The notes beneath the pieces were generated by a model, which had not been told where the DNA came from, ran no database searches, and was given only the letters and a program-made list of their open reading frames with translations. Source: Candidatus Thermoflexus sinensis (GTDB lineage Bacteria; Chloroflexota; Anaerolineae; Thermoflexales; Thermoflexaceae). Taken from it: a stretch of DNA of 64,000 bases. The translations under genes and the position numbers were made by a program. Of the stretch, positions 47,102-49,627 are shown piece after piece (position 1 is the stretch's first letter; each line of letters opens with the position of its first letter). The stretch covers positions 23,242-87,241 of the forward strand of contig JAEVEY010000140.1 in the NCBI GenBank assembly GCA_016842045.1, given 5' to 3'.

Positions 47102-48412
47102 TTGAGCCAGCAGGATTTGCCACTACCCTCCGAACATTACGCCCGGCTTCGGACCTGGTTGATCCAGCAACTTCGGAAGGGTCCGGAGCCCCCGCCGATA
47201 GGGGTGACGCCGGAGAACTGGCGCTGGGTCCATGAGCGGGTGAGCCAGTTACTGGCCTCCGCGCGGGTTTCCCTGCCTCCAGAGGCGCTGGAGCGGCTGG
47301 TGGACGAGGTCGGGGACGAGGTTGTAGGCTATGGTCCTATCGGGCCGCTGATGCGTGACCCCTCGATCACCGAGATCATGGTGAATGGCCCTGATCAGAT
47401 TTACGTGGAGCGGGCTGGGAAGATCATCGAAGTCGATGTGCGATTCCGGGATGAGCATCATGTGATGGAGGTCATTGAGCGGATTCTCAAGCCTCTGGGG
47501 CGTAGGGTGGACCGTGTCTGGCCGATGGCTGATGCCCGCCTTCCGGACGGCTCGCGGGTGAATGTGATCATCCCGCCCTGTGTCCTGAACGGGCCCACCA
47601 TCACGATTCGGAAATTCCCGGCGCGGCGGCTGACCGTGGAGGACCTCATCCGCTTTGGGACCATGACGCCGGAGATGGCAGAGTTCCTGCGAGCATGTGT
47701 GATCGCTCGATTAAACATCGTCGTCTCCGGCGGGACCGGTTCGGGGAAGACGACCTTGCTGAACGTGCTTTCCGCGTTCATCCCGGAGGAGGAACGCATC
47801 ATCACCATTGAGGATGCGGCAGAGCTTCAGTTGCAGCAGCGCCATGTGGTGCGGCTGGAGGCGGCGCCTGCCCTGCCGGATGGAACGGGGAGGGTTACCA
47901 TTCGGGATCTGGTGATCAACGCCCTGCGCATGCGACCTGATCGGATCATCGTGGGGGAATGCCGGGGGCCGGAGGCCCTGGATATGCTCCAGGCCATGAA
48001 CACCGGCCATGAGGGCTCAATGACCACCATCCACGCGAACAGCCCTCGTGACGCTCTTTCCCGTCTGGAAACGATGGTGTTGATGGCTGGCATGGAACTT
48101 CCCCTGCGGGTGGTTCGCACGCAGATCGCCTCGGCGATCGATCTCATTGTGCAGCAGGAACGGCTGCGGGATGGCTCGCGGAAGATCACCCGCATCACGG
48201 AAATCCAGGGGATGGAAGGGGACACGGTGGTGTTGCAGGATCTCTTTGTCTTCCAGGCGAAAGCGATCGGGGAGGAACAGGGGAAGGTGGAGGGGGTCCA
48301 TCGGCCAACTGGGATCCGACCGCATTTCATGTCCCGCCTGGAGGCCGTCGGCATCCGGCTCTCCCCGCAGATCTTCGGGGTGGGAACGTTTCCCGTGGGT
48401 CGGACGCGGTGA
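47102..48412 (+). CDS. cpaF: CpaF/TadA-family secretion ATPase
   Basis: EIMVNG, DARLPDGSRVN, SGGTGSGKTT, TIEDAAEL, LRMRPDRIIVGECRG, AMNTGHEGS..TIHANS. Confidence 0.92.
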   Translation: MSQQDLPLPSEHYARLRTWLIQQLRKGPEPPPIGVTPENWRWVHERVSQLLASARVSLPPEALERLVDEVGDEVVGYGPIGPLMRDPSITEIMVNGPDQIYVERAGKIIEVDVRFRDEHHVMEVIERILKPLGRRVDRVWPMADARLPDGSRVNVIIPPCVLNGPTITIRKFPARRLTVEDLIRFGTMTPEMAEFLRACVIARLNIVVSGGTGSGKTTLLNVLSAFIPEEERIITIEDAAELQLQQRHVVRLEAAPALPDGTGRVTIRDLVINALRMRPDRIIVGECRGPEALDMLQAMNTGHEGSMTTIHANSPRDALSRLETMVLMAGMELPLRVVRTQIASAIDLIVQQERLRDGSRKITRITEIQGMEGDTVVLQDLFVFQAKAIGEEQGKVEGVHRPTGIRPHFMSRLEAVGIRLSPQIFGVGTFPVGRTR

Positions 48413-48601
48413 TGGTGGGCTCTGCCGGCTTTGCGCGCGGAGGGCAGGATCCCTCCTTAAGAGGCAGGGAGCCGGCGCAATCGGCGTGACGCCGGACGCC
48501 GTTGCGTTTCTCTCTGGGGTTTTTCGGCTGGGCCGGGCGCCGAAGGGGCCCCGCCCAGCCCGAGGAATAAAGCAGAAGCGGTCTCCACGCTCTTCTTGAA
48601 C

Positions 48602-48841
48602 CTACTTCAGGCGAGCTGCCAGCGCCTGACGGATCTCCTCCACCTCCGCATGGCGCCCCAGCTGTTTTTTGGAGAACACCAGTTCGCCGTTCACTCGAAC
48701 CTCGAAGACGCCCCCGCTGGAAGGGATGAGCGTCCAGGAGGCGACCTGCCCTTCGAACTCTTTCAGCAACTCTTCGGTCAACCTGACCGCTCGAGGGAGA
48801 TACCCTCAGACCGCACAATACTCGATCTCCACGCGCAGCAT
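48602..48841 (-). CDS. SelW/SelT/SelH (Rdx)-family selenoprotein, 79 aa, selenocysteine at codon 12
   Basis: Manual translation MLRVEIEYCAV-U-GYLPRAVRLTEELL...LIPSSGGVFEVRVNGELVFSKKQLGRHAE. TGA at 48808-48806 is in the CxxU position. GGAGG RBS and SECIS-like hairpin present. Absent from the ORF track. Confidence 0.92.
48775..48789 (-). promoter_or_regulatory. Candidate bacterial SECIS apical hairpin
   Basis: CGGTC-AGGTT-GACCG starts 16 nt after the in-frame TGA and can be extended by CTC/GAG pairing. Confidence 0.7.
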
Positions 48842-49033
48842 AGAGACCTCCGTGGTTTGAAGATTAAGAGCTTGCTTTCCTCTATTTCAGGGTTGAGGCA
48901 GTCTCCCATGGAGAGGGATAACCAGCTGGACAGGCTTCGCCGCTCCTCCTCCCCACGGCCTGAAGGGCCGTAGGGGGAGGAGAGAAATCGTTTTTGGGGG
49001 TTCGGCGGGGCCTTCGGCCCATGCTAAACCCTA

Positions 49034-49124
49034 TAGGAGTTACGCAGTTCGGGGCTCGCGAGAAGAGGTTGAATGGCCCCACCCCCCTTTATCCCCCAGG
49101 AGAAAACCAACTGCGTAACTCCTA
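49034..49124. mobile_element. Internally deleted TAGG MITE subtype B (91 bp, reverse orientation)
   Basis: Both TIRs intact, hairpin core lost at an ATCCCCC junction. Flanks CCCTA / CCTTA. Confidence 0.82.
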
Positions 49125-49142
49125 CCTTAAAATGGACAGGCG

Positions 49143-49556
49143 CTAAGGCACATCGTTATAGGTCCAGAGGCGATTCGCCAGGAAATTCCAGAAGAGCGCA
49201 ACCCCCACAGCGATCACCTGAGCGATGTTCACACCCCACCTCATCCCCAGACGAGGGATCAGGAGCCCCGAGACCGCCCCGAACACAGCCAGGTTGATCC
49301 CCAGACCGGCAGTGTTCACCATAAAGAACTGGGAGATCTGCTGCCAGATAGGCTTCGAGCGGGACTCTGGATAGGTCCAGTAGCGGTTCCACAGAAAATT
49401 GTTCACCACCGCAGCCGTGAACGAAACCCCCTTCGCCAGGATGGGGATCCATCCGCCCAGGAAAATCAGTCCGTTCAGAATCCCCGTGTCCACCACAAAG
49501 CCCACCGTTCCCACGACGCAGAATTTCAGGAAGCGCACGATCTCCTTGCGATACAT
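49143..49556 (-). CDS. GtrA-family membrane protein
   Basis: RFLKFCVVGTVGFVVD, NNFLWNRYWTY, WNFLANRLWTY. Confidence 0.9.
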   Translation of the reverse strand: MYRKEIVRFLKFCVVGTVGFVVDTGILNGLIFLGGWIPILAKGVSFTAAVVNNFLWNRYWTYPESRSKPIWQQISQFFMVNTAGLGINLAVFGAVSGLLIPRLGMRWGVNIAQVIAVGVALFWNFLANRLWTYNDVP

Positions 49557-49627
49557 TCGATAAAGATCTCCCGACGCAGGTCGAAGGAAAAGCCTTCTTT
49601 CCACAGGACGGCCTCCACGTTGATGGG

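Follow-up and report, generated by a model that had tools for sequence, protein, structure and literature searches.

Small proteins of the SelW-like family, about 80 residues long with a CxxU motif near the N-terminus, were catalogued among prokaryotic selenoproteins by Zhang, Fomenko and Gladyshev in 2005, when they formed the most abundant of the selenoprotein families in the Sargasso Sea data set (PMC1088965). SelW-like selenoproteins were also analysed across genomes by Zhang et al. in 2006 (PMC1794560). For the bacterial members the literature gives no function (PMC1088965). Glutathione and 14-3-3 have been reported as partners of mammalian SelW, which need not apply here (PMC1088965). 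Structures have been solved for Cys-type bacterial Rdx proteins, with PDB codes 3dex (SAV_2001), 2fa8 (Atu0228), 2p0g (a SelW-related protein of Vibrio cholerae), 2obk, 2ojl and 2oka.

We have analysed a stretch of 64,000 nucleotides from Candidatus Thermoflexus sinensis (the window), which very probably carries a genuine selenoprotein gene of the SelW-like (Rdx) family, encoding 79 residues, with the UGA at codon 12 read as selenocysteine (Sec). The evidence considered comprises the gene anatomy, the family and fold, the Cys/Sec column, a hairpin that tracks the TGA, the Sec machinery and the coding-like evolution of the codons before the UGA. The gene has the length, the N-terminal CxxU and the GG..FE..SK core of the catalogued prokaryotic SelW proteins; like them it has an in-frame UGA, closely followed by a small hairpin that contains G, and has homologs with Cys at this column. 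There is no essential difference from them; the particulars are a Thermoflexus/Anaerolineae-class branch, a very short SECIS (6 bp, 3-nt loop), a presumably thermophilic host, and public records that hold a truncated stub only. The original prediction had placed the gene in a known family, in agreement with the catalogues of 2005-2006 (PMC1088965, PMC1794560).

Gene structure and locus

The gene is read directly from the minus strand of 48602-48841; a plus-strand reading of the same segment is nonsense and was rejected. The features of the locus are as follows.

48602-48841, minus strand: complete SelW-like/Rdx selenoprotein gene, 79 residues when translated with TGA = U, from ATG (48841-48839) through the UGA-Sec codon 12 to TAG (48604-48602)
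48847-48851, minus strand: Shine-Dalgarno sequence GGAGG, read directly, 5 nt upstream of the ATG at 48841
48806-48817, minus strand: redox motif Cys9-Ala-Val-Sec12 (TGT GCG GTC TGA), with the Sec codon at 48808-48806, marked by the invariance of C9 and of the C/U12 column
48576-48592, minus strand: terminator-like hairpin with a T-run behind it, 10 nt past the Rdx stop; a consensus match only, of a kind whose number is comparable to that in shuffles

The frame consists of 79 sense codons and the stop TAG, and its single TGA (48808-48806) is codon 12, in the context MLRVEIEY-C-A-V-U. Read with TGA as U, the product is MLRVEIEYCAVUGYLPRAVRLTEELLKEFEGQVASWTLIPSSGGVFEVRVNGELVFSKKQLGRHAEVEEIRQALAARLK. 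Its core motifs are GGVFEV (residues 43-48) and NGELVFSK (residues 51-58). The original prediction had described just such a frame, with a ribosome-binding site, one TGA at the CxxU position and the family motif GGVFEV..NG.LVFSK, and each of these elements is present.

The gene is apparently monocistronic and stand-alone. A gene for a CpaF-like ATPase, ending at 48412, is convergent with it, and a gap of 300 nt (48841-49143) separates its start from an upstream GtrA-like gene (49143-49604, minus strand). A scan for promoter consensus sequences gave nothing of the sigma-70 type upstream of the gene. Gene-neighbourhood comparison identified no functional partner and no neighbour conserved beyond the genus: the genuine shared neighbours (O-antigen-ligase-like, GtrA-like, CpaF and receiver-TadZ-like) are restricted to the genus, and the largest neighbourhood cluster is the antisense shadow of the Rdx gene itself. 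Two strong, GC-rich hairpins flank the gene: that at 48526-48560 (16-nt stem, 3-nt loop) lies between the convergent CpaF-like and Rdx stops, and that at 48943-48982, with a nested stem of 9-10 nt, precedes the Rdx start by about 100 nt. Either may be a terminator, or a copy of one of the small repeats with hairpins that occur elsewhere in this genome.

Family assignment and predicted fold

The protein belongs to the Rdx / SelT-SelW-SelH family by curated HMM cut-offs, motif position and fold. It scores 83.5 bits against Pfam PF10262 (Rdx; cut-off 22.6), 96.4 bits against NCBIfam NF041051 (cut-off 88) and 71.2 bits against NCBIfam TIGR02174 (CXXU_selWTH; cut-off 34.2), and the HMM matches begin at residue 3-4. 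An AlphaFold2 model, built with 40 homologs as input, has a pLDDT of 97.5 and a pTM of 0.86. It shows a thioredoxin-like fold with the element order beta1(2-9)-alpha1(15-32)-beta2-beta3-beta4-alpha2, in which Cys9 and Sec12 are located at the beta1/alpha1 junction.

In a Foldseek search the model matched the six bacterial Rdx structures with TM-scores of ~0.9, against 0.71 for mouse SelW and ~0.6 for thioredoxins. The likeness to the bacterial structures extends to sequence (E-values of 3e-13 to 1e-7), with individual TM-scores of 0.84-0.94 and an rmsd of ~1 Å; however, these proteins carry CxxC and a helix 1 of the RAAWMAQELL type, and their genes have neither the UGA nor the hairpin. Mouse SelW (PDB 2npb) and MIEN1 (2ljk) have the fold and the CxxU position in common with the Thermoflexus protein (TM 0.71, E-value 4e-7). 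The eukaryotic SelW system differs in its recoding signal, which is a SECIS in the 3'-UTR served by SBP2/eEFSec, whereas the element of the Thermoflexus gene lies within the coding region and would be read by SelB.

Conservation of the UGA codon

Each of the 29 matches from the class (34-99% identity) contains a single in-frame TGA, and in every case it occupies the C-x-x-U column, as in the Thermoflexus gene. Among named loci from many phyla (n = 57), the Sec codon is TGA in 39 and TGC/TGT in 18. Counted as distinct genes overall, TGA occupies the Sec column in 56/56 TGA-type orthologs, and 21 others have TGC/TGT. The expectation that homologs would show Cys or Sec here is borne out: an alignment of 40 diverse homologs is invariant at C9 and C/U12 and nowhere else, and the closest database proteins of full length have Cys, reading CAPCGY. 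Within the genus, codons 1-11 contain 12 synonymous and 3 nonsynonymous variants (67:11 downstream of the UGA). This bias indicates that the stretch before the UGA is translated in the same frame.

A single base change suffices to turn TGC or TGT into TGA, and the gene might accordingly be taken for a former Cys-type Rdx gene inactivated by such a mutation, all the more as a diverged second copy in a related metagenome-assembled genome (MAG) does look decayed. We regard this reading as very unlikely, and as the least probable of all those considered. In 56 distinct genes from many phyla, with frames otherwise intact, the TGA occupies one and the same column, purifying selection is strong on both sides of it, and the hairpin is conserved together with it in a genome with complete Sec machinery (see below). 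As judged from these comparisons, conservation effectively refutes inactivation, and a functional Sec codon is the preferred explanation of the TGA.

The second copy just mentioned (G012:C289:1261-1485) occurs in one related MAG and is 80% identical. Its SECIS stem is broken by a C-C mismatch, it shows odd substitutions (ECCAVUGDLL, with an additional Cys), and its 3' end runs on. A paralog in decay would look like this, as would a contig that is chimeric or a contaminant. The public label of its stub is "Rdx family protein [Thermoflexus sp.]".

Truncated annotation

One further feature concerns the way in which the gene has been called.

48779-48781, minus strand: internal TTG, the Leu21 codon inside the predicted SECIS, used as a false start in gene calls and giving a 59-aa stub that lacks the redox motif

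The original prediction held that the open reading frames listed here are only antisense shadows. Such shadows of 125 and 63 aa are indeed present, but the table-11 list also includes a same-strand 3' fragment of 59 aa (48602-48781). Its remark that genes of this kind are easily missed or miscalled is matched by the public Thermoflexus orthologs in the protein collection, which are stubs of 55-60 aa beginning MTEELL from which the redox motif has been lost. The names given to them, where there are any, are Rdx family protein and selenoprotein W-related protein. That annotation pipelines cut selenoprotein genes short is well recognised (PMC13326102).

If the public calls were taken at face value, the real product would be the 59-aa C-terminal fragment started at the TTG at 48781, and the UGA would end a short upstream frame; gene callers treat all Thermoflexus orthologs in this way, and the table-11 reading frame does exist. 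Missing from such a fragment, however, would be strand beta1 and all of the CxxU motif of a fold modelled with high confidence, and the HMM matches start well upstream of it. In-frame conservation, with the synonymous bias given above, extends over the 11 codons before the UGA, and these have a GGAGG of their own. In addition, the TTG position holds non-start codons (CUG, AUA, GCG) in several orthologs. We therefore consider the fragment very unlikely to be the product, and the full 79-residue selenoprotein remains the favoured one.

A SECIS-like hairpin downstream of the UGA

The mRNA downstream of the UGA contains a short hairpin within the coding region.

48775-48789, minus strand: predicted SECIS element, with 5' arm CGGUCA (48789-48784), loop GGU (48783-48781) and 3' arm UGACCG (48780-48775)

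A spacer of 16 nt separates the hairpin from the UGA, and the distance from the UGA to the loop is 22 nt. The original prediction had drawn it, with the same spacing, as CGGUC-AGGUU-GACCG; the hairpin is present, and is better described as a 6-bp stem, CGGUCA/UGACCG, with a GGU loop. The E. coli fdhF SECIS has the loop GGUC, which the GGU loop of the Thermoflexus element resembles.

When 27 distinct orthologs are aligned without gaps, 96.9% of the cells of the six pairs are paired, compared to 14-46% in slid controls. Compensatory double changes are found at 4/6 pairs, and 0/500 shuffles reach the observed values, although these covariation counts, like the Sec/Cys contrast below, are uncorrected for phylogeny. 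The loop starts with G throughout the same alignment, and RNAalifold predicts this helix on the ortholog alignment and nothing else. The codons of Val19 and Thr22 (GUC/ACC) switch jointly to Ala/Ala (GCC/GCG) or to Thr/Val (ACC/GUG); the pairing between the two codons is the reason why residues 19 and 22 covary. The predicted SECIS (codons 18-23, 48775-48790) in this way constrains the protein sequence, with coupled amino-acid changes that keep the stem. Cys-type relatives have the unrelated helix-1 sequence RAAWMAQELL in place of the SECIS-encoded residues.

Of 56 distinct Sec genes, 47 combine all 6 bp of the stem with a loop that starts with G, compared with 0/21 Cys genes (Fisher p ~4e-12, uncorrected for phylogeny); the other 9/56 Sec-type orthologs depart from this strict stem-plus-loop rule. 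In the three Cys genes nearest to the Sec clade only 3-5 weak pairs remain, and their loops (AUC, AAC and CGC) have lost the loop G. On this comparative evidence, namely covariation and the tracking of the TGA, with the Cys forms as the decisive control, we assign the hairpin as the putative SECIS element of the gene.

Published criteria for bacterial SECIS elements describe a loop of 3-9 nt in the form N1-G-[G|U]-N-N2, with G at loop position 1 or 2, a stem of 4-16 bp, a distance of 16-37 nt from the UGA to the loop, and a minimum free energy of -7.5 kcal/mol or below (PMC13188914). The hairpin agrees with all of them (loop A-GGU-U, 6 bp, 22 nt, -7.8 kcal/mol with dangling ends). Compared with the bacterial SECIS consensus of the bSECISearch model, the element has a stem of only 6 bp, no bulged U and no conserved lower helix. 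At gathering thresholds Rfam gives no match at the Rdx locus; its only match in the window is a tRNA elsewhere.

The hairpin is thermodynamically modest. The bare 15-mer has a folding energy of -6.5 kcal/mol at 37 °C and of about -1 kcal/mol at 75 °C, and the ensemble probability of the helix is 0.08-0.18 (131-nt context, 37 °C). The folding energy of the 66-nt region is no better than that of shuffles (z = -0.16), so that stability alone cannot support the SECIS call. A UGA-proximal helix proposed by RNAfold (GAGGG/CCCUC) was considered as part of the SECIS and rejected: it is paired in 51.9%, like the slid controls, and is genus-specific.

Selenocysteine machinery

A Sec codon implied, as the original prediction noted, that selA, selB, selC and selD would be found elsewhere in the genome. 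The assembly, a MAG of 212 contigs that is 94.5% complete, contains them all: selA (557 bits), selB (307 bits, together with a C-terminal piece), selD (376 bits) and a tRNA-Sec (80 bits) all lie over curated cut-offs, and the tRNA-Sec has the anticodon UCA according to ARAGORN. The selD gene (L010:1357-2400, on G000:C106) has a UGA of its own (L010:1531-1533), at the catalytic SCAG-U-ASK position. The best SECIS candidate of selD is an 8-bp stem, CUGGCGCA/UGCGCCGG, with the loop CGUGC, starting 24 nt after its UGA; this loop is unlike the GGU of the Rdx element and the same as that of a thioredoxin-like candidate (see below). TGA is the commonest stop in the window, where it ends 17/32 long reading frames, and therefore has not been reassigned.

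selB was searched in the same 61 related genomes as the Rdx gene in order to exclude a binning artefact. It scores over the cut-off in 53/61, including 28/28 of those with a TGA-type Rdx gene, and the Rdx gene is present in 0/8 genomes without selB (one-sided hypergeometric p ~0.005, calculated by hand). A closed, one-contig genome of the same genus (G006) has both selB and a TGA-type Rdx gene.

These data also bear on the identity of the inserted residue, which is not distinguishable from sequence: the UGA might be read through as Cys or Trp by a near-cognate or mis-charged tRNA, with the hairpin acting as a generic stimulator of read-through. In some systems Cys does replace Sec at UGA under selenium limitation. 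Against such decoding, the hairpin has features of the SelB type (a small G-first loop, 22-nt spacing) that are lost exactly where the codon is TGY, the gene and selB co-occur in 28/28 genomes, and selA, selD and tRNA-Sec are kept in the genome. Insertion of Cys or Trp thus seems highly improbable, and insertion of Sec is the reading that we adopt.

Other candidate selenoproteins

Genome-wide scans, which were heuristic (a hairpin or redox-motif filter plus codon log-odds) and not exhaustive, recovered selD, the Rdx gene and one further candidate. The latter (G000:C204:3627-4118, minus strand) lies outside the window and encodes 164 aa, with N-terminal membrane helices and a thioredoxin-like domain containing the motif WFSNY-U-LGC (UxxC). 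Its Pfam Thioredoxin_2 and Thioredoxin scores are just under the cut-off. A hairpin, AUCCUGC-CGUGC-GCAGGAU (7 bp, loop CGUGC), starts 19 nt after the UGA, and ~25 relatives in the class have exactly one in-frame TGA each. The Rdx protein and this candidate were considered as a dedicated redox pair, which was rejected: outside the genus their co-occurrence is only partial.

No Sec-type formate dehydrogenase was found in the genome, the best TIGR01591 match scoring 354 bits against a cut-off of 666, and its molybdopterin oxidoreductases contain no in-frame stop. It thus seems that the Sec machinery has no clients other than SelD and small redox proteins.

Proposed mechanism and implications

We infer SelB-SECIS recoding from the established bacterial pathway. 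Translation would start at the ATG at 48841. With the UGA of codon 12 in the A site, SelB-GTP carrying Sec-tRNA(Sec, UCA) would be held by the hairpin 16 nt downstream, so that Sec would be inserted and the chain would not terminate. The ribosome would then unwind the hairpin, decoding it as A-V-R-L-T-E, and read on to the UAG. The predicted product is a cytoplasmic protein of thioredoxin fold with Cys9-x-x-Sec12 at the beta1/alpha1 junction. Judged from the family, this motif most likely cycles between the selenol/thiol and selenenylsulfide forms, as in an oxidoreductase of the thiol-disulfide type.

The family, the recoding mechanism and the problem of mis-annotation are already well described, and the gene opens no new question. 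Its main value is the correction of the annotation of the Thermoflexus Rdx gene, since stubs without the active site would cause proteomic and comparative studies to miss the selenoprotein. It also illustrates, with good controls, how a bacterial SECIS of minimal size keeps its stem through coupled Val/Thr to Ala/Ala to Thr/Val changes.

For the organism, the selenoproteome may be unusually small and purely of the redox type, as far as scans that are not exhaustive can indicate. We suggest, as a possibility that is less likely than not, that the Sec apparatus could be kept for three products only (SelD, Rdx and the UxxC membrane protein) and for no formate dehydrogenase or other catabolic selenoenzyme, that the persistence of the trait could be due to the two redox ones, and that the Rdx SECIS, predicted to be almost melted at the ~70 °C of its host, would not form beforehand but would be captured or induced through SelB. 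The gene adds to the sketchy picture of selenium use among thermophilic Chloroflexota.
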